IMG/VR virus record: IMGVR_UViG_2728369187_000007
Location: 1 to 20,139 of that record
Length of the DNA stretch: 20,139 nucleotides
Reading direction: 5' to 3' (one strand)
Source: a virus
Lineage: Duplodnaviria > Heunggongvirae > Uroviricota > Caudoviricetes
In this document: piece after piece, positions 1,641-14,536 of the stretch
Position numbering within the stretch: the stretch's first letter is position 1
How the letters are laid out: every line of letters starts with the position of its first letter
Notes under the pieces: model-generated
The model's database searches: none
What the model saw: only the letters and a program-made list of their open reading frames with translations
Told to the model about the DNA's origin: nothing
Translations under genes and position numbers: made by a program

Positions 1641-4112
1641 TTAAGAATCAGCCTGACTCGGGATCAGTTTTTGCCAGATAACTGAAACGTATTTTGCTTG
1701 GTAACGGGCGTCATCAAGTGCATTATGGCGCTCACCTTCGAATGGAATAGCCGTTCTGGCATCGAAATCTATGGCTTTCCCCAGCTCAACGATTGTGCGT
1801 ACATCGCGATCGTTGTAGTAACGCCACGGGCAGGGGATCCCCTGCCGTTCGTATGAACGGCGCAAAATCGTGTTGTCGAAGTTGGCTCCATTTCCCCAAA
1901 CCTGAACAAAAAATTCACCGGAGTTTTCGTCGATAAATTCCCGCAATTGTAACAGTGCATCATCTAACGGGATTTCATCGGTCATAATGGCAGATTGTGC
2001 TTCGCGTGATTGCTTAAGCCACCATTTAATGGTGTCCCGATCAATGACTCCGCCAGCAGTTTCCAGATCGATAGTCTTACTAAATTCCGGTCCTATATCT
2101 CCGGTTTGCGGATCGAAAAATATTGCACCTATTGAGATGATCGGTGCATCAGGATTTTTTCCCATGGTTTCAAGGTCGATCATTAGATGGTCACACGTCC
2201 TGCTGGTGGATGTGATTTCGTGATGACCGTTCACCTTAATTGAGTGATCTGCCGTCTCGCCAGTTTCATTATCGCTATTGTGATGCTGATTGCCGCCAGT
2301 GTTCTCCTTGTGTGGATGTTCAGCGCCTTCCATTTCCTCCGGATCATCTTCCTGAACTTCAACCTGATACTCTTCATCGAATGTTTCTTGGTATGTTGCG
2401 TCGCCCATCACCGCGCCACAATCAGGGCAGTTGCCGCCGCCGGTCTGACCGCAGGCGGTGCAGACTTTTTCCACTTCCTGTTGCGCCACTGGTTCAGGCT
2501 GTTTCGTTTCTGGCTCGTTTTGTAACGCATTTGGGCTGTTTTGTTCCGCTTTTTGGTAGTTCCGTTCCGATTCATGCTGGTTCTGGTTCACAGAATCGCG
2601 GGTCTGGATCCCCTTAACCCATTTCGGATCATTCGGGTCACTAATCCCTTCAACAAATTCACCATGTGATGCAGCAAGCAACTTATCGGCGTCAGGCTGG
2701 CTGATATTGGCTGCCTGCATAATTTTGTTTACTTCGTCAGCGGTAACTTTTATCGGCTCTGGTTGTTCTGAATCTTCAGCGGTATCTACATTTTGCGGTA
2801 AGCCCGTGTATGTGCCATTTTTTCGGGCAAAATATTCTTCTTTTGTGATTTCAGTGGCGCCAGCAGCCAGTGCCTTATCCAGACCAGAAAGTTTGTTTGC
2901 GCGACCGTATTTTTCTCCGTCCTTATCTGCGAAGAGGAAATAGAACGGCCCCTCACGCTCTACAGATGGTTCAGCTTCCGGCGCGGTTTCATTTTTTGGG
3001 ATATCAGATACCTCAGTTTCCACTGCATCAGTTTGTGTTTCTGATGACTGGAGAACATCAACAGTGCCCAGGTCTGTTTCTTCATTCTCAAACACGCCCT
3101 TTGTCGTCAGGTATTCGCAGATATATTTGTTCAGTGCTACGGGATCTTTGTGAATGTCGATCGGACGCTCACGGACAAGGCCAAAAATAGTTTGGCGGTC
3201 GTAGCGAAGGGCATCAGGCTGTTTGCGCATTGATGCCGAGATACGCTTCCAGTCTTCGCGGTCGTTGTCGATAACTTCTTTTTTTGCCCAGCGATGGATG
3301 CTGCCGTCAATGTTTCCGGCATCCACATCACCAGGCCAGAGAGCGTAGGCCAGTTCGTCATCCAGTGTTTTCCATGTCTGCTTGTATTCGCGATGAATGG
3401 CAGCAATGACCGGGCTGATTTTTCCTGTTGAATTTTCAGTGTACTGTTGATTGGCTCTGGCGCGGGCGAGATCAACAACAGACGTGTATTTTCCGGTTTC
3501 CTTGCGTTCACCTTCGCGACGTTTTTTCCAGATGCGCATCTCTGCCTGAATTTCGGGCCATTTAGCACCAGGAATACATTTATGCTTAACCCACCCAATG
3601 GCGTGCAACTTAAGCTCCGGATACATGGCGTTAACTTCTGGCATTTTCATCAACGCTTCAACGATATGTCCGTCGAATGTTGCCATGTCTTCCTGCAACA
3701 ATTCCTGTGCGCTAATAACCATATCAACGGTGATGTTTTCACATGTGTCGAACTTAACCATGACAGCGTTCTGTACTTCAGGGGCCAGCTTGTCAAAAGT
3801 GACGTTCATCGGATCGGATTCAGTCTCAACCGGGACAAAAGAAGCAGACTCCTCATCCCAGCGGTTTTCCTGCATATATTCAGCATCCCATGAATCGAGG
3901 GCAGGGCGGGGTATGCCAGGTTTATCCTCGCAGACAATAAATTTATAAGCGCAGTCCTGAGCAGCCGGATAATGTTCCAGGAACTGCCAGTGAAATTTTG
4001 CTCGAGCACGGCGTTCGTCGCCAGCTTCAATGGCTGTGGCTACAGCCACAGCGCCTTCTTCCCTTGTTGCCAGTTCGTCAGGAATAGCGGCGCAAATAAA
4101 GACTTTACTCAT
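1641..4112 (-). CDS. RecE-like exonuclease (exodeoxyribonuclease VIII-like) with C-terminal DEDD-type 3'-5' exonuclease domain
   Basis: 823-aa ORF. C-terminal LMIDLETMG matches the Exo I motif (D-x-E-T-x-G) of DnaQ-like exonucleases. Acidic low-complexity linker in the middle. Sits where lambda has exo. Confidence 0.7.
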   Translation of the reverse strand: MSKVFICAAIPDELATREEGAVAVATAIEAGDERRARAKFHWQFLEHYPAAQDCAYKFIVCEDKPGIPRPALDSWDAEYMQENRWDEESASFVPVETESDPMNVTFDKLAPEVQNAVMVKFDTCENITVDMVISAQELLQEDMATFDGHIVEALMKMPEVNAMYPELKLHAIGWVKHKCIPGAKWPEIQAEMRIWKKRREGERKETGKYTSVVDLARARANQQYTENSTGKISPVIAAIHREYKQTWKTLDDELAYALWPGDVDAGNIDGSIHRWAKKEVIDNDREDWKRISASMRKQPDALRYDRQTIFGLVRERPIDIHKDPVALNKYICEYLTTKGVFENEETDLGTVDVLQSSETQTDAVETEVSDIPKNETAPEAEPSVEREGPFYFLFADKDGEKYGRANKLSGLDKALAAGATEITKEEYFARKNGTYTGLPQNVDTAEDSEQPEPIKVTADEVNKIMQAANISQPDADKLLAASHGEFVEGISDPNDPKWVKGIQTRDSVNQNQHESERNYQKAEQNSPNALQNEPETKQPEPVAQQEVEKVCTACGQTGGGNCPDCGAVMGDATYQETFDEEYQVEVQEDDPEEMEGAEHPHKENTGGNQHHNSDNETGETADHSIKVNGHHEITSTSRTCDHLMIDLETMGKNPDAPIISIGAIFFDPQTGDIGPEFSKTIDLETAGGVIDRDTIKWWLKQSREAQSAIMTDEIPLDDALLQLREFIDENSGEFFVQVWGNGANFDNTILRRSYERQGIPCPWRYYNDRDVRTIVELGKAIDFDARTAIPFEGERHNALDDARYQAKYVSVIWQKLIPSQADS

Positions 4113-4751: not shown

Positions 4752-4809
4752 AAAAATGGCGGCAGAGCAGTCACGGAGTAAAACTGATACCGCCAAACGT
4801 CACCAGAAA
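4752..4809 (-). ncRNA. dicF: DicF small regulatory RNA (ftsZ-targeting sRNA of Qin-type prophages)
   Basis: Reverse complement reads UUUCUGGUGACGUUUGGCGGUAUCAGUUUUACUCCGUGACUGCUCUGCCGCCAUUUUU, near-identical to the DicF sequence as I recall it. Ends in a GC stem plus U-run; located between the leader and dicB. Confidence 0.75.
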
Positions 4810-5951: not shown

Positions 5952-6359
5952 TTATTTTATTGATTTATTTTTACGCGCTTTAAGCATTTCTTCGAAGAGT
6001 TTGTTGAAGTTTTCTACTCTTGCGCGCATTTCAGACAGCAAGGCTTCCTGCTCGGAAGATGGAAGAGCATCGAATAATTCGATCAATTCTTTGTGGTTGG
6101 GAGTTAGCTCTGTTTCCACATGAAGTTCTTGTGCCGGCACTGGTGCCTTGTCTTCGTCACCAAACATTAGCCATGTAGGTGAGCACTTCAGAGCATCCGC
6201 TAAAGCAAACAATCGTTTTCCGACTGGCTGGGTTTCGTCTCTTTCCCATTGTGAAATTGTGACGTGAGCAACCCCAGCGAGGCGCGCAGCTTCTCGTTGT
6301 GTTAAGCGTAATTCTTTTCGTCGCGCCAGAACTCGCTGGCCTAGGGTTCTTGTATCCAT
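5952..6359 (-). CDS. dicA: DicA-like HTH (XRE-family) prophage repressor
   Basis: N-terminal HTH (LTQREAARLAGVAHVTISQWE). C-terminal half (CSPTWLMFGDEDK...EMRARVENFNKLFEEMLKAR) closely matches DicA as recalled. Divergent from the cro-like gene. Confidence 0.8.
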   Translation of the reverse strand: MDTRTLGQRVLARRKELRLTQREAARLAGVAHVTISQWERDETQPVGKRLFALADALKCSPTWLMFGDEDKAPVPAQELHVETELTPNHKELIELFDALPSSEQEALLSEMRARVENFNKLFEEMLKARKNKSIK

Positions 6360-6360
6360 A

Positions 6361-6426
6361 GTTAGGTAATTCTAATTTTTCTTGACTTAGGTATCCCGCG
6401 CACAATAATGTTAGAAAAGTCTAACA
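6361..6426 (+). promoter_or_regulatory. Right operator/promoter region (OR/pR-like) between repressor and cro-like gene
   Basis: Perfect 18-bp palindrome TGTTAGA-AAAG-TCTAACA at 6409-6426 and a weaker site GTTAGG-TAAT-TCTAAT at 6361-6376. Rightward promoter: -35 TTGACT (6382-6387), 16-bp spacer, -10 AATAAT (6404-6409). Confidence 0.6.
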
Positions 6427-6439
6427 ATAGGAGGCTTTG

Positions 6440-6667
6440 ATGCTTAAAGCTGACGCAATTACTTTTTTTGGCAGCAAAACAAAGCTTGCCAATGCCGCAG
6501 GAGTGAGACTGGCAAGTGTTGCTGCTTGGGGGATACTGGTTCCTGAAGGTCGCGCGATGCGTCTACAGGAGGCATCTGGCGGGGAGCTTCAGTATGATCC
6601 CAAAGTTTATGACGAATATCGTAAGACGAAGCGGGCGGGGCGGTTGAACAATGAAAATCACTCCTGA
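6440..6667 (+). CDS. dicC: DicC-like Cro-type regulator
   Basis: 75-aa protein from the ATG at 6440, with AGGAGG 5 nt upstream (the ORF-track start at 6437 is TTG). Divergent from the repressor; sequence resembles DicC/YdaS-type Cro proteins. Confidence 0.7.
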   Translation: MLKADAITFFGSKTKLANAAGVRLASVAAWGILVPEGRAMRLQEASGGELQYDPKVYDEYRKTKRAGRLNNENHS

Positions 6668-7172
6668 ACAGGCTCGTGAGGCTCTGGATGCCTGGATATG
6701 TCGACCAGGAATGACACAGGAGCAGGCGACGATATTAATCACTGAAGCATTCTGGGCTTTGAAAGAGCGCCCGAACATCGATGTTCAGCGTGTCACAGAT
6801 GAAGGTGGCGCGGTTGATCAGCGAGCGCTTGGCGTTAATCGAGTGAAGATATTCGAACGCTGGAAGGCTATCGACACTAGGGATAAGCGTGAAAAGTTCA
6901 CGGCGCTAGTGCCTGCAATTATGGAGGCTATCCGGATTAATGATTTCAGGTTGTATCGTGAAATTAGTGACGGAAAAAGCATCACGTACATGATCGCCGG
7001 GTTAAACAAAGAATATGGCGATGTGGTGGAGTCCGGACTGCTTTTTGCTGATCCTGCCGTAGTGGATCGTGAAACTGACGAACTTATAGAAAAAGCAATT
7101 GCTTTCAAACTTGCGTATCGACTGCAATACCAACAAAAAGCTGGATGGAATTATGAGCCTTCTTTTTGCTGA
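6651..7172 (+). CDS. YdaT/CII-like regulatory protein (putative)
   Basis: 173-aa ORF directly after the cro-like gene, overlapping its end; the position corresponds to cII/YdaT in lambdoid prophages. Assignment is by synteny only. Confidence 0.4.
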   Translation: MKITPEQAREALDAWICRPGMTQEQATILITEAFWALKERPNIDVQRVTDEGGAVDQRALGVNRVKIFERWKAIDTRDKREKFTALVPAIMEAIRINDFRLYREISDGKSITYMIAGLNKEYGDVVESGLLFADPAVVDRETDELIEKAIAFKLAYRLQYQQKAGWNYEPSFC

Positions 7173-8118
7173 ACGCCCACTGGTTATAAACACACAGCTT
7201 GCGATGAAGATTGGCTTAAATGAAGCCATTGTGTTGCAGCAGTTGCATTACTGGTTGAGAGATACCAATTCCGGCATGGAATGTGATGGTGTTCGCTGGA
7301 TTTACAACACAACGGAACAATGGCTGGAACAGTTCCCATTCTGGTCAGAGTCAACGTTAAAGCGCGCGTTTGCAAGTCTGAAAACGCTGGGGCTTTTGCG
7401 TTGTGAAAAGCTCAATAAATCAAAGCGCGATATGACCAATTTCTACACGATCAACTATGGGAGCGAGCTTTTAGATGGTGGCAAATTGAACGAATCCATC
7501 GGTTCAAAATGCGCCGCTCCATCAGGTCAAAATGACACGATGGAAGAGGTCAAAATGAAACGCTCCATTGGTTCAAAACGACCCAATGTCATCGGGTCAA
7601 AATGGCCTGATGATCTTACAGAGAATACAACAGAGATTACTACAGAGAATAAAAACACTTTTCGTCCGGAAGCTTCGCAACCGGACCCGCAGACCGCTGA
7701 ACAGGATTTTTTAACCCGGAACCCCGACGCGGTTGTGTTTAGTGCGAAAAAACGCCAGTGGGGTAGCAGGGAGGATTTGGCGTGTGCGCAGTGGATTTGG
7801 GGGCGGATCGTGAACCTTTACGAACAGGCTGCCAGCGACGATGGAGAGATCATGCGACCAAAAGAGCCTAACTGGACAGCCTGGGCCAATGACGTGCGCA
7901 CAATGCGGATGCTGGATGGCAGAAGCCACAGACAAATTTGCGAAATGTTTGGTCGGGTACAGCGAGATCCATTCTGGGTAAAAAACATCATGAGCCCGTC
8001 AAAACTCCGCGAAAAATGGGACGAACTGGTCATCCGCTTGGGACGTTCACCTGTACAGCGTTGTGTGAATCATATTTCTGAACCGGATACAGAAATTCCG
8101 CCTGGTTTCAGGGGATAA
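7153..8118 (+). CDS. Replication initiation protein (lambda O-like replisome organizer)
   Basis: N-terminal region typical of phage replisome-organizer proteins; an iteron array lies inside the gene, as in lambda O. Start set at the ATG at 7153; the ORF-track start at 7099 is TTG. Confidence 0.7.
   Translation: MSLLFAERPLVINTQLAMKIGLNEAIVLQQLHYWLRDTNSGMECDGVRWIYNTTEQWLEQFPFWSESTLKRAFASLKTLGLLRCEKLNKSKRDMTNFYTINYGSELLDGGKLNESIGSKCAAPSGQNDTMEEVKMKRSIGSKRPNVIGSKWPDDLTENTTEITTENKNTFRPEASQPDPQTAEQDFLTRNPDAVVFSAKKRQWGSREDLACAQWIWGRIVNLYEQAASDDGEIMRPKEPNWTAWANDVRTMRMLDGRSHRQICEMFGRVQRDPFWVKNIMSPSKLREKWDELVIRLGRSPVQRCVNHISEPDTEIPPGFRG
7492..7655 (+). repeat. Origin-of-replication iterons plus AT-rich tandem repeats inside the O-like gene
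   Basis: Five direct repeats of about 11 bp (consensus GGT(T)CAAAATG) starting at 7501, 7525, 7548, 7570 and 7595, spaced 22-25 bp. Followed by three 12-bp tandem repeats (ACAGAGAATACA / ACAGAGATTACT / ACAGAGAATAAA) at 7616-7651. Confidence 0.65.
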
Positions 8119-8158: not shown

Positions 8159-8581
8159 GTGGCAAAAGTTTTTACACAGGAAGAGCGGGAAAAAATTAAA
8201 GAGCAGGTGGTCGAACTTGTGCGCCAGAGCGGTCGCGAGACATTACGACAGTTGGAAGCTAAAACAGGTGCGACAAGATATCTGATGAGCATTCTTGCCA
8301 GAGAGCTGGTTGCCAGTGGTTATGTATACAACTCCGGCTACGGGTTATTCCCGTCTGAACAGGCACGAAAGGACTGGCAAAATGCCCGCAAAAAACTCTC
8401 TAGGGCGAAGGTGAAGAAACCCGCTGTGGTTGATCCGGACCTTATCTGGTCACTACCTGATGGAGAAATACGTCGCTACGACAGTCGTCTAAACATAATC
8501 TGTCGCGAGTGCCGGAAGAGCGAAGTTATGCAGCGCATATTGTCGTTTTATCAGGGAAATGTTCGGTATCTATTTAAGTGA
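8159..8581 (+). CDS. Hypothetical protein (140 aa), replication-module associated
   Basis: GTG start with a strong RBS (AAGGAGGA, 8147-8154). Normal GC. No motif recognised; it does not look like a lambda P or DnaC-type helicase loader. Confidence 0.6.
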   Translation: MAKVFTQEEREKIKEQVVELVRQSGRETLRQLEAKTGATRYLMSILARELVASGYVYNSGYGLFPSEQARKDWQNARKKLSRAKVKKPAVVDPDLIWSLPDGEIRRYDSRLNIICRECRKSEVMQRILSFYQGNVRYLFK

Positions 8582-8896
8582 CGAGATTAAAGTGCATTAG
8601 TTAAGATGTAAATTGACATTTTCATGGCATAGGGTAGAGGTAGCGTGGTTGTCTGCTTTGTGCCATGAACTGATGTCGCTTGTGTGCGTGGCAATTAGTG
8701 TATAACGGATATCATCAGACTCCAGCAGTAGCATTGCTTGAGCATACTAACATATGAAATCTTTAGTTAACGTAAGATAAATTAGATTTAGTTTTTTTGA
8801 GTATGAGCTCATAAATAATCAAAAAAACTTGATACGCCATATGACTTTGATTTATTTTGGAAAAACATAAAGGTAATGTAATGTAAAGAGGAAAAT

Positions 8897-10384
8897 GTGG
8901 ACATTAGAGACTGGCTACCAGAATTTCAAGTTTCAGCAGAAACAGATCGGGACTTACAGACCTATTTTTTTAAGCTACCGGCGATAAAGGATATTATTGA
9001 AAGTAGGGCTTGGTTGGTTCTTGGAAGAAAAGGTACTGGTAAAACAGCCATTTATGAACACCTTAGAAGAGGAAAACCAGCCAATCTCAACGGGTTTTAC
9101 TCAGTATGTCTAAATTTTAGTGACTATCCATGGCCAGCCCATCAACTTTACAAGGATGCAATGGCTGGAGAACTTTCCGCTTATCAAAAAAGTTGGATGT
9201 ATCTTTTTTATATTAAGGCATTATCTAAACTTATTGAAATAAAAAATGATGCTGGAGAGACTTTAAACAAAGATCTAACGTGGGCACATAATTATATCAA
9301 AACTATCTTTGGTAGTCCCGACCCAACTCTTAGGGAGGTTTTGTTTTCAAAAATAACCAGATTAAAAACCATAAAAGGGCCCAGTGCTGGTCTTAATGAA
9401 GTATCATTGGACGCAGGTGAAATTTCGTTAGAGGAAGTTGCTGAGAATGCTCAGCTAAAGCAAAAGCTAAGAGCTAATGCTTTCACATTGCTTACGTATT
9501 TTGAAAAAATTTTTAAAGATAACATTGGTAATGAAAAAATAATTATCGCCCTTGACCAATTAGACGAAAACTGGCTAGAGGGGCAAATTGAAGAATATAG
9601 TAAGGTTTTAATAAATCTGCTAAATGTCTGTAGAAACATAGCATCTGATGAACGCCTCAATGATAAATTAAAAGTCATTCCCTTCCTACGAACGGATATT
9701 TATCATTCTTTGAAATTCAATGATAAAAACAAATTATTGCAAGATAGTGCTATCATAATCTCATGGAATGAAAATAATCTAAACGATATGTATTATGAGA
9801 GGATAAAGAAATACAAACCTAATGATCTCATATTAGATGACGAAAAGGACAGATCTGGGAAAGTATTTGAGGTTTCATTCGTTAGGCAGGGGACTCCTCC
9901 ATTTAAATATATATGTCGCCGTTCTTTCTTTAGGCCTAGGGATATTATTGTCTACTTCAACAAAATTAGGGCATGTCATAAAAATAATGTCTCAGGTCTT
10001 TACACTTCCAATGAGCTTTATGAAGCTGACCGTGAAGCATCTATAAGTGTGTACAATGAGGTGATTGATGAATGGTCCAACCAATTCCCTGAAATTGAGA
10101 ACTTACTAACTGTTCTTCAAACTATCCAAGTAGAAACATTCGATTTTAATGATTTCTCCGAGAAGTGCCGTAATGAATTTGCAGGTATTTCTGATGGGGT
10201 GATACGTCAATATATCAACTTCCTGTTTGATAACTCACTTATCGGACAAAAAAAACAAGGTAGATGGGAATACGTAAGTAGTTTGCCTAACTTAAAAATT
10301 AATCTACAAAATGAGTTTAGGACACATCATGCTTTAAAATACAGGTTGCATTTAATAGAAAGCAGACCGAGCCAAAATATTTAG
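8897..10384 (+). CDS. P-loop NTPase of unknown family (495 aa) on an AT-rich island; candidate accessory/defence gene
   Basis: GTG start with a GAGG RBS 5 nt upstream; in-frame stop 18 nt upstream. Walker A GRKGTGKT (aa 43-50); candidate Walker B IIIALDQLDE (about aa 215-224). Markedly AT-rich relative to flanks, preceded by about 315 bp of AT-rich non-coding DNA. Confidence 0.85.
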   Translation: MDIRDWLPEFQVSAETDRDLQTYFFKLPAIKDIIESRAWLVLGRKGTGKTAIYEHLRRGKPANLNGFYSVCLNFSDYPWPAHQLYKDAMAGELSAYQKSWMYLFYIKALSKLIEIKNDAGETLNKDLTWAHNYIKTIFGSPDPTLREVLFSKITRLKTIKGPSAGLNEVSLDAGEISLEEVAENAQLKQKLRANAFTLLTYFEKIFKDNIGNEKIIIALDQLDENWLEGQIEEYSKVLINLLNVCRNIASDERLNDKLKVIPFLRTDIYHSLKFNDKNKLLQDSAIIISWNENNLNDMYYERIKKYKPNDLILDDEKDRSGKVFEVSFVRQGTPPFKYICRRSFFRPRDIIVYFNKIRACHKNNVSGLYTSNELYEADREASISVYNEVIDEWSNQFPEIENLLTVLQTIQVETFDFNDFSEKCRNEFAGISDGVIRQYINFLFDNSLIGQKKQGRWEYVSSLPNLKINLQNEFRTHHALKYRLHLIESRPSQNI

Positions 10385-10656
10385 CTTACATCCATCTCCA
10401 TTAAGAAATCTTGCTATTGTTCTTATGGATCGTCTTTCTGACTGATTTCATATTGGCGAGGTAAAGGTAGTTAAGTAGAATGGCTGCGGGTGCTTGAGGC
10501 TATCTGCCTCGGGCATGAACACCAAAGGCAGATAGAGAAAAGCCCCAGTTAACATTACGCGTCCTGCAAGACGCTTAACATTAATCTGAGGCTCAATCTA
10601 TGAACGGCAAATCTAGGTTAGCCTCTTACGTGCCGAAAGGCAAGGAGAAGCAGGCT

Positions 10657-10812
10657 ATGAAGCAGCAAAAGGCGATGTTAATCGCCCTGATCGTCATCTG
10701 TTTAACCGTCATAGTGACGGCACTGGTAACGAGGAAAGACCTCTGCGAGGTACGAATCCGAACCGGCCAGACGGAGGTCGCTGTCTTCACAGCTTACGAA
10801 CCTGAGGAGTAA
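10657..10812 (+). CDS. hokD: Hok/Gef-family membrane toxin (HokD/RelF-like)
   Basis: 51-aa product MKQQKAMLIALIVICLTVIVTALVTRKDLCEVRIRTGQTEVAVFTAYEPEE with the single TM helix and conserved Cys of Hok toxins. RBS AAGGAGAAG upstream of the ATG at 10657. Confidence 0.85.
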   Translation: MKQQKAMLIALIVICLTVIVTALVTRKDLCEVRIRTGQTEVAVFTAYEPEE

Positions 10813-10883
10813 GAGACCTGGCGGGGGAGAAATCCCTCGCCACCTCTGATGTGTCTGGCATCCTCAACGCACCCGCACTTAAC

Positions 10884-10900
10884 CCGCTTCGGCGTTTTTT
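10884..10900 (+). terminator. Weak intrinsic terminator downstream of hok
   Basis: Short GC hairpin (CGC-TTCG-GCG) followed by T6; a degenerate copy of the stronger terminator at 11547-11572. Confidence 0.35.
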
Positions 10901-10955
10901 CCGTTGATTAACTCTAGTTATTAGAGAACCGAACTTTTATTGATGGGGCAGGGAG

Positions 10956-11348
10956 ATGAAGAAACTTGTTTTAGTCGCAGGTGTAATGATTGCAACAGTA
11001 ATGTTGGGAGGGTGTGCAGCAAAGGTCGATCCAGCGTTGAAAGCAGAAGCAATGAAGCCACTAACATGTAATGATGAAAAGCAATGTGACTTTTATTGGA
11101 AACGAGCGCAATTCTGGTTGGCTAATAATTCCTCATGGAAAATTCAAACGGCGACAGACACGCTAATTTCCACTTATAATCCCTCTCCAAATAGTCCATT
11201 CCTCGCTTATCAAGTGAGTAAAATGCCAAATGAAGATGGATCCTCAAGAATTTTCATCAAGCCTTTTTGCGATAATATGTTTGGCTGTCAACCAAACCCC
11301 TATCAGGCAGTTGTTTCCTTTAAAAACTTCGTTAAAACAGGGCAGTAG
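10956..11348 (+). CDS. Lipoprotein of unknown function (moron)
   Basis: Signal peptide with lipobox (VMLGGC, Cys20) plus four further Cys. GGGAGA RBS. Lower GC than the backbone. Bracketed by terminators upstream and downstream. Confidence 0.7.
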   Translation: MKKLVLVAGVMIATVMLGGCAAKVDPALKAEAMKPLTCNDEKQCDFYWKRAQFWLANNSSWKIQTATDTLISTYNPSPNSPFLAYQVSKMPNEDGSSRIFIKPFCDNMFGCQPNPYQAVVSFKNFVKTGQ

Positions 11349-11546
11349 TGTATAGCTTGGACGATAAATTATTAGTGAAAACGCCGTAAACCCTCACCCA
11401 ATGTGGACTAAGTCTATCAAACATGACTGTGATGATTAGTCCGTAGTTGTTGCCTATGAAATCTGGATTGAGTCAGGGTTTAATCCAATAATTATTCTAT
11501 CGTTCCTTTACAAGTCCGGTATATTACTTTCAGTTTGTTTTAGCAT

Positions 11547-11572
11547 ACCCGCTTCGGCGGGTTTTGTTTTTT
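11547..11572 (+). terminator. Rho-independent terminator
   Basis: 6-bp stem ACCCGC / GCGGGT with a TTCG loop, followed by TTTTGTTTTTT. The ORF-track TTG start at 11564 lies inside it and is rejected. Confidence 0.7.
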
Positions 11573-11644
11573 CCTGGCATTCTGGTTTACAATTCGCACG
11601 CCAGCCTGAACAACTGGCACCTGCTGCGCCAGCAGAGACAACCG

Positions 11645-11923
11645 ATGGCGCACGATACCAAATTACACAATTCTGATTATTCTGCCGTCTTTGCCAGCAG
11701 GCACGGGCGGCGTTCCCGCACTTTCAAATCTGACTGGTTCCAGCATGACCCATGTACTGAAGAACAGGCCGAATGGCTAATTCATAACTATCGCAGACGC
11801 GGATACGAGATTAAGAAAGCCCTCAGCCTCGATTATCGTCACTGGATAATCTATGTCAGGCTCCCTTATTCCGAACGCCCACCGCGCCCATCCCGCACAT
11901 ACCAGCAACGGATCTGGAGGTAA
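11645..11923 (+). CDS. Hypothetical basic protein (92 aa); possibly Rem-like by position
   Basis: ATG at 11645 (the ORF-track TTG start falls in the terminator). Its stop abuts the GTG start of the DUF968 gene. No motif recognised. Confidence 0.5.
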   Translation: MAHDTKLHNSDYSAVFASRHGRRSRTFKSDWFQHDPCTEEQAEWLIHNYRRRGYEIKKALSLDYRHWIIYVRLPYSERPPRPSRTYQQRIWR

Positions 11924-11924
11924 C

Positions 11925-12974
11925 GTGCGGATATTACTTCGACCTGTTCTGGTACCGGAACTCGGGCTGGTGGTCCTTAGGCCGGGCCGTGAATCCATGC
12001 AAGTATTTCATAACCCTCGAGTGCTGGTGGAGCCTGAACCGAAAAGCATGCGCGGTCTGCCGTCCGGAGTCGTCCCTGCCGTTCGCCAGCCGCTGGCGGA
12101 GGATAAATCATTACTGCCATTTTTCAGCGATGAGCGGGTGATTCGTGCTGCTGGCGGCGCTGGGGCACTGTCTGACTGGCTGTTGCGTCATGTCAAATCC
12201 TGCCAGTGGCCTCATGGTGACTATCATCACAGTGAAATCGTCATACATCGTTACGGTACCGGCGCGATGGTGTTGTGCTGGCACTGCGACAACCAGTTGC
12301 GTGACCAGACATCCGAATCACTCGGGCAACTTGCTCATCAAAACCTGTCAGCATGGATGATTGACGTCATACGCCATGCAATGAATGGCACGCAGGAGCG
12401 GGAATTGTCGCTGGCTGAATTATCCTGGTGGGCGGTCTGCAATCAGGTGGCGGACGCGCTTCCGGAGGCAGTATTACGTCGTTCTCTGGGGTTACGTGCG
12501 GAAAAAATCCGCTCCTTGTACCGCGAAAGCGACATCGTACCGGGAGAGCAGACCGCCACCAGCATACTGAAGCAGCGCACAAAAAATCTTGCGCCGTTGC
12601 CTCATGCCCACCAGCAACAGAACCCACCACAGGAAAAGACGGTGGTATGCATCACCGTTGATCCGGAGTCTCCGGAATCTTTCATGAGGCGACCTAAACG
12701 TCGCCGTTGGGTAAATGAGAAATATACGCGCTGGGTGAAGACACAGCCGTGTGCGTGTTGTGGTCAGCCAGCCGACGATCCCCATCACCTGATTGGTCAC
12801 GGTCAGGGAGGGATGGGAACAAAGGCCCACGATATTTTCACGCTACCGTTGTGCCGGGAACATCACAACGAACTTCATGCGGATCCGCTGGCGTTCGAAG
12901 AAAAGCATGGTTCCCAGGTTGATTTAATTTTTCGTTTTCTTGATCACGCCTTTGCAACCGGCGTGCTCGGGTAA
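11925..12974 (+). CDS. ydfU: DUF968/YdfU-like protein with C-terminal Cys/His (HNH-like) motif
   Basis: 349 aa from the GTG at 11925 (GGAGG 4 nt upstream), the length I recall for Qin YdfU. C-terminal CACCGQPADDPHHLIGHG...LCREHHNELH. Confidence 0.7.
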   Translation: MRILLRPVLVPELGLVVLRPGRESMQVFHNPRVLVEPEPKSMRGLPSGVVPAVRQPLAEDKSLLPFFSDERVIRAAGGAGALSDWLLRHVKSCQWPHGDYHHSEIVIHRYGTGAMVLCWHCDNQLRDQTSESLGQLAHQNLSAWMIDVIRHAMNGTQERELSLAELSWWAVCNQVADALPEAVLRRSLGLRAEKIRSLYRESDIVPGEQTATSILKQRTKNLAPLPHAHQQQNPPQEKTVVCITVDPESPESFMRRPKRRRWVNEKYTRWVKTQPCACCGQPADDPHHLIGHGQGGMGTKAHDIFTLPLCREHHNELHADPLAFEEKHGSQVDLIFRFLDHAFATGVLG

Positions 12975-12986
12975 AAGAGGTTACTG

Positions 12987-13346
12987 ATGCGTATAGAGTT
13001 TGTTTTGCCTTATCCGCCGACGGTGAATACTTACTGGCGACGTCGTGGCAACACATATTTTGTATCAAAAGTCGGTGAGCGTTATCGCCGTGATGTGGCA
13101 CTAATTGTTCGCCAGCAGCGGTTGAAATTAAACCTGTCCGGAAGGCTGGCAATAAAAATTATTGCAGAGCCACCGGATAAGCGCCGCCGCGACCTGGACA
13201 ATATCCTGAAGGCACCACTGGATGCGCTGACGCATGCCGGACTTCTTATAGACGACGAGCAGTTTGATGAAATCAATATTGTGCGCGGACTGCCTGTTCC
13301 TGGTGGTCGGCTGGGGATAAAAATCACAGAACTGGAGTGCGCATGA
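12987..13346 (+). CDS. rusA: RusA-family Holliday junction resolvase
   Basis: 119 aa with the conserved PDKRRRDLDN catalytic region and a GGRL...I motif near the C-terminus. RBS AAAGAGG. Confidence 0.85.
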   Translation: MRIEFVLPYPPTVNTYWRRRGNTYFVSKVGERYRRDVALIVRQQRLKLNLSGRLAIKIIAEPPDKRRRDLDNILKAPLDALTHAGLLIDDEQFDEINIVRGLPVPGGRLGIKITELECA

Positions 13347-14226: not shown

Positions 14227-14302
14227 GGCCCTTTAGCTCAGTGGTGAGAGCGAGCGACTCATAATCGCCAGGTCGCTGGTTCAAATCCAGCAAGGGCCAC
14301 CA
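14227..14302 (+). tRNA. tRNA with anticodon CAT (elongator Met or Ile2-type)
   Basis: 76 nt. 7-bp acceptor stem GGCCCTT/AAGGGCC, D-arm GCTC...GAGC, anticodon loop CTCATAA, T-arm GCTGG-TTCAAAT-CCAGC, encoded CCA. G1-C72 pair argues against an initiator. Confidence 0.85.
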
Positions 14303-14303
14303 G

Positions 14304-14380
14304 CCGCCACTAGCTCATCAGGAAAGAGCGTCAACCCTTTAAGTTGAGTGTGCGAGGTTCGAGTCCCCGGTGGCGGTCCA
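14304..14380 (+). tRNA. tRNA-like gene, anticodon TTT (Lys) as read, atypical anticodon loop
   Basis: 77 nt. Perfect 7-bp acceptor stem, D-arm GCTC...GAGC, anticodon stem TCAAC/GTTGA with loop CCTTTAA (C at position 33), T-loop TTCGAGT with one A-C mismatch in the T-stem, encoded CCA. Confidence 0.6.
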
Positions 14381-14382
14381 GT

Positions 14383-14458
<76 letters not shown>

Positions 14459-14461
14459 TAT

Positions 14462-14536
<75 letters not shown>

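Follow-up and report, generated by a model that had tools for sequence, protein, structure and literature searches.

The 20,139-nucleotide stretch of virus DNA analysed here (IMG/VR record IMGVR_UViG_2728369187_000007, positions 1–20,139; hereafter designated the window) comes from the early and late-control region of a lambdoid Escherichia coli prophage, and its positions 7474–7686 most probably (about 0.8 in our estimate) constitute the vegetative theta-type replication origin of that prophage. The element lies inside the DNA coding for the predicted disordered linker of the phage's own initiator, the 321-residue product of an O-like gene on the plus strand (7153–8118; open reading frame (ORF) list with translation, and PHROG 391), and is composed of 23-bp iterons, three tandem 12-mers, and an inverted repeat. 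An iteron-type origin within the O-like gene had been proposed in a preliminary description made from the letters of the window, and comparison with relatives now supports that proposal by DNA-level conservation, a lambda-like layout, and domain architecture. The extent given there (7492–7655) does contain repeats, but the element begins earlier, at 7474, and on the downstream side also takes in the inverted repeat at 7664–7686. A tripartite or bipartite cassette of the same kind recurs in hundreds of relatives.

The iteron part of the element (7474–7612) consists of five clear head-to-tail units of 23 bp and one weak unit, with the partly dyad-symmetric core GGTCAAAATG. A repeat finder returned five copies at spacings of 23, 23, 23, and 24 bp over 7481–7612, and Tandem Repeats Finder (TRF) a period of 23 at 7495–7568. 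All units are read on the plus strand: iterons 1 (CATCGGTTCAAAATGCGCCGCTC, 7497–7519), 2 (CATCAGGTCAAAATGACACGATG, 7520–7542), and 3 (GAAGAGGTCAAAATGAAACGCTC, 7543–7565) were found by both programs, and iterons 4 (CATTGGTTCAAAACGACCCAATG, 7566–7588) and 5 (CATCGGGTCAAAATGGCCTGATG, 7590–7612) by the repeat finder. Several of them, including iterons 2 and 4, are near-palindromic (for example, CATC-AG-GTCA-AAA-TGAC-AC-GATG). A degenerate sixth iteron, GATGGTGGCAAATTGAACGAATC (7474–7496, plus), stands in register with the array, and two relatives (L002 and L003) have a good copy, GAGGTCAAAGTGA, at this position. The five direct repeats of about 11 bp noted previously are real in number, but the unit is not an isolated 11-mer; it is a contiguous 23-mer, in several copies partly palindromic (as in iteron 2).

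The iterons are followed on the plus strand by the three tandem 12-mers ACAGAGAATACA, ACAGAGATTACT, and ACAGAGAATAAA (7618–7653; repeat finder, TRF, and motif count), the consensus of which is ACAGAGAWTACW. The repeat finder gave a 14-nt unit three times at 12-bp spacing over 7617–7654 and TRF a period of 12 at 7618–7651, and the motif ACAGAGAWTA occurs three times in the window against 0.05 expected. The three AT-rich 12-bp tandem repeats of the preliminary description are therefore real, although, as described below, they are not an A+T-rich tract private to this phage, the motif being common to many phyla. Positions 7613–7660 have a GC content of 0.29, with A amounting to 0.50 on the top strand, and no duplex of the ORF is less stable than the 40-bp segment from 7616 onward (–44.3 kcal/mol versus a mean of –54.5 ± 3.6 for the region), which stands at the 98th percentile of the whole window. 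Presumably, the 12-mers and the A-rich tail to about 7660 form the DNA-unwinding element. The third part, read from the sequence, is the inverted repeat GTCCGGAAGC-TTC-GCAACCGGAC (7664–7686, plus), in which arm positions 1–6 and 9–10 pair. A single GATC is present near the element, at the border between the iterons and the 12-mers, and Rfam gave no match in the origin region.

The signal of the iterons resides in their clustering and phase, not in the number of cores. Throughout the window, the core with one mismatch was counted 5 times against 1.95 expected, which is not significant alone, and autocorrelation and codon-shuffle tests took the place of this simple count. The self-identity of 7474–7612 at lag 23 was 0.55, compared with 0.345 ± 0.03 for other 139-nt segments of the window at the best of lags 10–40, and none of 20,000 codon shuffles reached the value of 0.55.

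It may be asked whether these repeats are instead a feature of the protein, that is, a slippage-born, low-complexity linker peptide (IGSK..., TENTTEITTEN) kept for its flexibility by DNA that is itself functionless. We consider this scarcely credible. The region does encode a predicted disordered linker, the peptide IGSK appears thrice, and the 12-mers are in codon phase, in the same frame in 122 of 124 viral matches. The 23-bp period, however, moves the core through three codon phases (0, 2, 1, 0, 2, and 2 across the units), in which it is translated as GSK, GQN, or VKM. As 23 is not divisible by 3, the IGSK peptide previously ascribed to the repeats holds for three of the five copies, the other two reading SGQND and EVKM. 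Moreover, when 57 distinct relatives with the iteron type of the window were aligned (48–99% DNA identity), variability at codon positions 1, 2, and 3 was 0.17, 0.10, and 0.38 in the DNA coding for the N-terminal domain, an ordinary coding pattern, whereas in the iterons the values were 0.19, 0.17, and 0.19 and variability tracked the 23-bp phase instead. Phases 2, 9–12, 14–15, and 22 (A..CAAA.TG..T) vary in less than 10% of the sequences, and the spacer phases in 30–40%. Conservation of the iterons as DNA in homologues, which the preliminary description had named as a check, was thus borne out, third-codon variability being gone across the iterons. A period of 23, three different peptides, and third positions no freer than the others do not fit a peptide repeat. 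In the 12-mers, the third positions are almost invariant (0.015, 0.094, and 0.024 for codon positions 1, 2, and 3, at loci selected by the 12-mer pattern).

The inverted repeat is also shared. A 23-nt hairpin of the form GTCnGGTTnC-NNN-GnAACCnGAC (10 + 3 + 10) follows the 12-mers in 44 distinct relatives; its outer pairs belonged to the selection pattern, and only the inner four pairs are informative. These are paired in 36, 37, 44, and 40 of the 44 sequences, one of them as GC in 29, UA in 8, and CG in 7. Hairpin cells were paired at 87.7%, as against 17–37% when the partner was slid by 1–3 columns. The paired changes swap two amino acids together (A/S/P with Q/K/E) within the disordered linker, and therefore favour base pairing, in DNA or RNA, over a constraint on the protein. 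Stem position 4 is a near-constant mismatch (C.C, A.A, A.C, or C.A in 36 of 44 sequences); in hairpins of the window type, position 4 pairs and positions 7–8 are mismatched instead.

A 40-bp megablast match to O genes of Shiga toxin (Stx) phages led to the sequence CTTACAGAGAATACAACAGAGATTACT, found directly after quite different iterons in unrelated-looking initiator genes. The exact 23-nt pattern ACAGAGAWTACWACAGAGAWTAC occurs in at least 119 viral contigs and at least 120 species genomes. Among the matches listed are Gammaproteobacteria (Enterobacterales, Acinetobacter, Pasteurellaceae, Vibrionaceae, and Legionellales), Alphaproteobacteria and Arcobacter, Bacillota (Bacillus, Lysinibacillus, Lachnospiraceae, Clostridium, and Thermoanaerobacter), and, further, Cyanobacteria, Chloroflexi, Nitrospinota, Brocadiaceae, and Saccharibacteria. 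Matches in a Nostocales genome (L143) and in an archaeal metagenome-assembled genome (MAG; L162) are unrelated protein repeats, and those in a giant virus (L018) and in L221, L234, and L126–L128 were discarded as either chance matches or unrelated protein repeats. The cultured phages with the 12-mer (100 records) include phages of Staphylococcus, Bacillus, Acinetobacter, Klebsiella, Erwinia, Pseudomonas, Burkholderia, and Geobacillus, and the gene that spans the motif is in every case annotated as a replication initiator or a DnaD-like protein.

At nearly every such locus, 4–6 direct repeats stand within a few bases upstream of the 12-mers. In 179 distinct arrays, the period was 23 bp in 134 and 22 bp in 31, and the identity of the units to their own array consensus was 0.75, compared with 0.59 in control DNA. 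These iterons belong to at least 20 sequence types (for example, GGTCAAAATGAC, GGGCAAATTGCCC, GGACAATTTGTCC, GGGGAAACCC, and CCTACAGGGAA), and they diverge together with the protein: the similarity of iteron consensus sequences was 0.88 at an N-domain identity above 80% and 0.46, the background, at an identity below 25% (Spearman 0.47), the background being reached once N-domain identity falls below about 40%. The 12-mer stays constant throughout, 10 of its 12 positions being conserved at 82% or more and eight of these at more than 90%. An iterated hidden Markov model (HMM) seeded with the N-domain of the window recruited 220 of the 246 loci with the 12-mer, and most of the remaining 26 are cut by contig ends or are unrelated protein repeats. 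The window itself shows all the marks of this cassette family, namely, the N-domain with which the HMM was seeded, 4–6 repeats of 21–24 bp before the 12-mers, and at least two (here three) tandem 12-mers. When loci were searched by protein with an alignment of diverse N-domains, the best 80 matches were all 97–100% identical to the window.

Codon usage speaks further against a peptide kept for its own sake, as the codons of the 12-mers are fixed against local usage and their variants are mostly non-synonymous. Glu is encoded by GAG at 97% in the 12-mers versus 39% elsewhere in the same ORFs, and Thr by ACC or ACG at 1.7% versus 48%, at loci with a flanking GC of 0.30–0.62. In 211 units free of the search pattern, the non-synonymous variants TCA (25), GAT (27), and AAG (13) outnumber the synonymous ACG/ACT (6) and GAA (14). 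A search with the back-translated pattern TE[NI]TTE[NI]T, which covers a 512-fold larger space, added just seven loci to the 124, four of them real family members.

Moreover, the motif is found where the peptide is not. At the locus L204 of Thermoanaerobacter thermocopriae (NZ_BAZY01000001.1, about 2850–2880), which has the same N-domain, the usual T-E-I-T frame is closed by a TAG, so that the motif is read in another frame, as IDYYRDYYRDY; the iterons there have periods of 21/24 bp and resemble GGACAAAATGAC. In the alphaproteobacterial MAG MKUL01000018.1 (L237, 5700–6140), the iterons and two 12-mers are untranslated, lying between genes after repA; the order in this plasmid-like region is parA, a small gene, and repA, the product of which belongs to Pfam RepA_C, a Rep family unrelated to the N-domain. 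The 8.4-kb rolling-circle plasmid pBSG3 of Bacillus amyloliquefaciens (L333; NC_014104.1, 700–850) has the cassette outside any coding sequence, in the DNA that separates a rap-phr pair from rep, as three copies of CCTACAGGGAAA at 23/22 bp and three of TACAGAGATTAC. Six sibling plasmids have the same match. Neither the seven features listed for pBSG3 nor the 1.5 kb examined included a gene for a winged-helix N-domain, and the orphan cassette may represent a remnant, a decoy, or an origin that depends on a helper. The peptide explanation is already contradicted, and five lines of evidence agree that the 12-mer is constrained as DNA. Collectively, these comparisons show that the iterons, the 12-mers, and the inverted repeat are all maintained as nucleotides, not as protein.

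The 12-mers are likely to be more than an A+T-rich tract, and may act in opening or loading in a sequence-specific manner. The closest precedents are the 13-mers of unwinding elements, to which plasmid Rep proteins and DnaA bind in single-stranded form (PMC4081077, PMC10602881), and a further one is the binding of lambda O to A/T-rich single strands (PMC7466680). Most carriers of the 12-mer have just one protein part in common, the N-domain with its conserved Q-x-x-Y-W helix; in view of the orphan copies and those linked to RepA_C, a universal host factor is another possible reader of the motif. We tentatively suggest, as a possibility to which we give clearly less than even odds, that the 12-mer is a near-universal, sequence-specific motif for origin opening or helicase entry in a very large, unannotated family of initiators from phages and plasmids. 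The iterons and the recognition helix would diversify freely, whereas the 12-mer would be read as single-stranded DNA, either by a conserved surface of the N-domain or by some universal protein of the host replisome, and would double as a universal joint for shuffling modules of origin specificity and replisome recruitment across bacteria. Such an initiator would use two DNA codes, a variable double-stranded one and an invariant single-stranded one, analogous to DnaA boxes and DnaA-trios. The 12-mer was described in none of the open-access full texts searched, so that an older account is possible; text searches with the 12-mer or its peptide gave only unrelated primer matches, and keyword searches gave papers on lambda and Stx phages, on plasmid Rep proteins, and one on a Francisella phage, with nothing on the 12-mer.

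Downstream of the 12-mers, at least 11 unrelated clusters of C-terminal parts are attached to the one N-domain family. Family searches or direct sequence comparison identified among them a DnaD domain, a DnaA N-terminal domain, a 'conserved phage C-terminus', a lambda-O-like sequence, and the DnaT-tailed type of the window. The 12-mers serve as the crossover point because they are identical between otherwise unrelated initiator genes. Thus, L113 is 99% identical to the Stx-type L004 in the 400 bp that precede the 12-mers and 29% identical beyond them, whereas it is 100% identical to L011 (mEp460_4F5-type) downstream and 26% upstream; it is a clean crossover inside the 12-mers. L013 versus L020 is a second recombinant, and over both cases the identity is about 95–100% on one side and about 30% on the other. 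From these sequence comparisons, the 12-mers appear to be the joint at which a specificity half (N-domain and iterons) and a recruitment half (C-domain) are exchanged.

These clean recombinants, and the joining of so many unrelated C-terminal clusters to one N-domain family at this point, would also be expected if the 12-mers were conserved above all as a linker for recombination (a 'module joint', in the terms of the modular theory of phage evolution) and were uniform merely through frequent homologous exchange. That explanation seems quite unlikely to us: exchange across phyla is too rare to fix 12 positions at a flanking GC of 30–62%, the motif is kept in intergenic and orphan copies that have nothing to exchange, and its position, A-richness, and low duplex stability suit an unwinding element. 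The roles of joint and unwinding element are compatible, since a functionally fixed sequence becomes a joint automatically.

PHROG 391, 'replication initiation O-like', matches the 321-residue protein with an E-value of 2.8e-93, 'O-like' being the label of a functional category. Pfam gave no family for it at E ≤ 0.01, and NCBIfam none, apart from a sub-threshold match to the DnaT tail. The protein is common (clusters P0001 and P0005 have 705 and 3664 members) yet is named 'hypothetical protein' in the sources; in some records a 448-residue version fused to the upstream YdaT-like ORF is named 'toxin YdaT family protein'. In an AlphaFold model built from a 14-sequence alignment, with a mean predicted local distance difference test score (pLDDT) of 55, residues ~11–100 (7183–7452, plus; pLDDT 63–69) form an N-terminal winged-helix domain of the topology helix-helix-strand-strand-helix-helix-wing, and residues 183–296 (7699–8040, plus; pLDDT 70–84) form a helical C-terminal domain, after which the model ends in a disordered tail. 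Residues 102–174, between the two folded domains, are unstructured (pLDDT 24–33) and are exactly those encoded by the repeat region, with the iterons corresponding to residues 108–154, the 12-mers to 156–167, and the hairpin to 171–178. The earlier placement of the repeats in the linker between the N- and C-terminal parts agrees with this prediction.

The N-domain, which presumably binds the iterons, has the helix motif [AG][ILV][FVL][LV][QSN]Q[ILV]xYW, present in the window as AIVLQQLHYW (residues 25–34). Its profile weakly matches winged helix-turn-helix regulators in the PDB, and the top Foldseek matches of the model to the PDB are the N-domains of staphylococcal RepA_N proteins (5kbj, 4pql, and 4pt7; E-values of 0.07–0.13), which are weak (E ≥ 0.07), as we ascribe to the modest confidence of the model. 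The C-domain matches the C-terminal parts of the PHROG families 'replication initiation O-like' and 'DnaD-like helicase loader', and is probably a module for replisome recruitment. The last 21 residues, VQRCVNHISEPDTEIPPGFRG (8053–8115, plus), resemble the C-terminal tail of E. coli DnaT; by phmmer against the PDB they match the DnaT chains 2ru8, 6aep, and 9zbt_D, aligned as RDVNTVSEPDSQIPPGFRG, and the ending SEPDTEIPPGFRG is nearly the same as that of the DnaT tail. Outside these 21 residues the initiator has no match to DnaT. Identification of the protein as DnaT itself ('Primosomal protein I' in some phage records) was rejected, as the model NF002770 scored 16.3 bits against a cut-off of 201 and covered its positions 160–179 only. 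An ending of the form IPxGFRG or VPxGFR(S/G) is also found on related initiators that have other C-domains, and this ending may be a short docking motif onto host helicase-loading proteins.

The layout of the element was compared with those of known origins. In lambda, O contains four annotated iterons at spacings of 20, 24, and 23 bp, after which come an A-rich tract and then the palindrome GTCAGAGAATTC-TGGC-GAATCCTCTGAC. Like the element of the window, ori-lambda and the six-iteron origins of the Stx phages 933W and P27 occupy the central part of the initiator gene, where it encodes the linker joining a DNA-binding N-domain to a recruitment C-domain, and all share 4–6 dyad-symmetric iterons at 20–24 bp, an A-rich tract on the promoter-distal side, and a GTC...GAC palindrome (PMC7466680), to which the inverted repeat at 7664–7686 is equal in position. 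In lambda and Stx phages, an O-some is formed, the A-rich tract is unwound, and O binds A/T-rich single-stranded DNA (PMC7466680). The gene order is also common to lambda and the window (cI-like, cro-like, cII-like, and initiator), the initiator gene standing downstream of the analogues of cro and cII. In the relative L013, a lambda-O-like sequence comes directly after the 12-mers, which therefore occupy the place of the A-rich tract of lambda. The window differs from lambda, however, in that its iterons are unrelated in sequence, its A-rich tract is a conserved 12-bp tandem repeat where that of lambda is merely A+T-rich, and the protein ends in a DnaT-like tail, with no P gene found. Thus, at least four dyad-symmetric repeats in the initiator ORF, followed by a strand-asymmetric A+T-rich tract and then a palindrome, are as in lambda, whereas homology to lambda O (Phage_rep_O) and a P-like loader immediately downstream were not found. 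The resemblance of the element to ori-lambda is one of architecture, and homology does not place it in the O/P family; the statement that it mirrors the lambda ori inside O holds for layout and gene order, but not for descent of the initiator or for a P-like partner.

The RepA_N initiators of plasmids from Gram-positive bacteria (RepA of pSK41 and pTZ2162; structures 5kbj, 4pql, and 4pt7) are the best, though weak, structural match to the N-domain of the window. According to Weaver et al. (2009) and Schumacher et al. (2014), these proteins reportedly have iterons in the middle of rep that are bound by the N-domain, and a host-specific C-domain that recruits the replisome. The iterons of the window likewise lie in the central part of the initiator gene, within codons 108–154, and Pfam PF06970 (RepA_N) matched neither the window protein nor eight diverse relatives. 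In iteron plasmids (oriV of RK2, and F) and in oriC, the unwinding element contains 13-mers, and one melted strand is bound by Rep or DnaA (PMC4081077, PMC10602881). Like these, the 12-mers are short tandem repeats in an A+T-rich region beside initiator sites; unlike these, which are specific to the replicon, the 12-mer is common to at least 20 iteron types and crosses phyla. A similar genetic arrangement is found in the phage replisome organisers G38P of SPP1 with oriL, ORF13 of TP901-1, and Rep of Tuc2009, which have origin repeats inside the initiator gene, belong to Pfam Phage_rep_org_N, and include many members that are DnaD-like at the C-terminus. The N-domain of the window differs from theirs in having no Pfam family, though relatives of the window do carry a DnaD domain, and SPP1, TP901-1, and Tuc2009 were absent from the 100 cultured-phage records with the 12-mer.

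A further explanation would take the 23-bp repeats as sites for the initiator-like protein or another regulator, serving autoregulation or a roadblock to rightward transcription, partition, incompatibility, or as an exclusion decoy, with the true origin elsewhere. Iterated dyad-symmetric sites do also typify operators and centromere-like sites, and orphan plasmid cassettes such as that of pBSG3 could be decoys. We nevertheless judge it unlikely, as the sites always directly precede the least stable, A-rich tract, the arrangement equals that of ori-lambda and of RepA_N origins, and the C-terminal modules of the relatives (DnaD, DnaA_N, and the DnaT-like tail) are typical of replisome recruitment. 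Moreover, the window contains no other such iteron cluster, the only comparable signal being one of lag 21 at about 2450–2620.

Several points weigh against the assignment of 7474–7686 as an origin. Its activity is read solely from anatomy and conservation; no DnaA box or IHF consensus was found near 7474–7686; and the hairpin of the window is weaker than the version of its relatives. The kinship with lambda is an analogy by architecture, since hhalign of the N-domain profile to lambda O gave a probability of 0.5% and no Pfam match was obtained. Overall confidence in the structural model is low (mean pLDDT 55) and its fold matches are weak (E of about 0.1), and the suggested role of the DnaT-like tail draws on 21 residues. 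The loci behind the 12-mer statistics were collected by the motif itself, and orphan 12-mers with no adjacent N-domain gene seem to fit poorly with reading by the initiator.

If 7474–7686 is the origin, the following mechanism may be proposed. Dimers of the winged-helix N-domain would bind the partly dyad-symmetric iterons, the spacing of which, about 2.2 helical turns, would lead to a wrapped nucleoprotein complex like the O-some of lambda. The resulting strain would melt the adjacent A-rich 12-mer tract, the least stable one, and one melted strand of the 12-mers would be held sequence-specifically, most likely by a conserved surface of the initiator, as in plasmid Rep and lambda O. The exchangeable C-domain with its DnaT-like tail would then bring in the host DnaB-DnaC helicase complex, which fits the finding of no gene for a P-like loader or helicase in the window; this search covered the larger ORFs from the initiator to RusA/Q (8159–13346). 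A single gene appears to make up the replication module. As for the hairpin downstream, it may fold in the displaced strand and aid priming or loading.

By this assignment, a very common 'hypothetical protein' gene of E. coli prophages, with no Pfam or NCBIfam family, would be the replication initiator of the prophage, and its origin would be located. The signature of iterons of about 23 bp followed by 12-mer repeats allows origins and initiator genes to be located in phages and prophages, and in some plasmids, of Proteobacteria, Bacillota, Chloroflexi, candidate phyla, and probably Cyanobacteria. A fixed motif beside diverging iterons makes it testable how initiators open the A+T-rich region and whether they do so sequence-specifically. 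The cassette also explains how the specificity and recruitment halves of initiators recombine, and orphan plasmid cassettes become predictable incompatibility or decoy elements, which may matter in conflicts between phages and plasmids or phages and their satellites.

The initiator gene is 97–99% identical to those of the phages mEp460_ev081, HannyBb, and PhiR42_1. It is preceded by a control region (5952–7172; Pfam and PHROG) consisting of a cI-like repressor gene (5952–6359, minus), a Cro-like gene (6437–6667, plus), and a cII/YdaT-like gene (6651–7172, plus), and rightward transcription from this region enters the initiator gene. Farther upstream, all on the minus strand, are genes for an integrase (2–1297) and an 823-residue exonuclease (1641–4112), and the small RNA DicF (4757–4808; Rfam). 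The exonuclease ORF contains the second-strongest periodicity of the window (about 2450–2620; lag-21 self-identity up to 0.58), which is in frame for a peptide repeat and in which TRF reports no repeat at a score of 40 or more. On the 3′ side of the initiator gene, the order is a DUF977/Ren-like gene, a 495-residue ORF, hok/sok, DUF968, RusA, Q, four tRNA genes, lysis genes, and terminase. The 495-residue ORF (8897–10384), which has no Pfam family, may be accessory or defence cargo; mEp460_ev081 has a different gene on the opposite strand in its place. Rfam identified the sok antitoxin RNA of the hok/sok-type locus (10488–10662, plus) and the four tandem tRNA genes (14227–14533, plus), which stand 5′ of the lysis genes.

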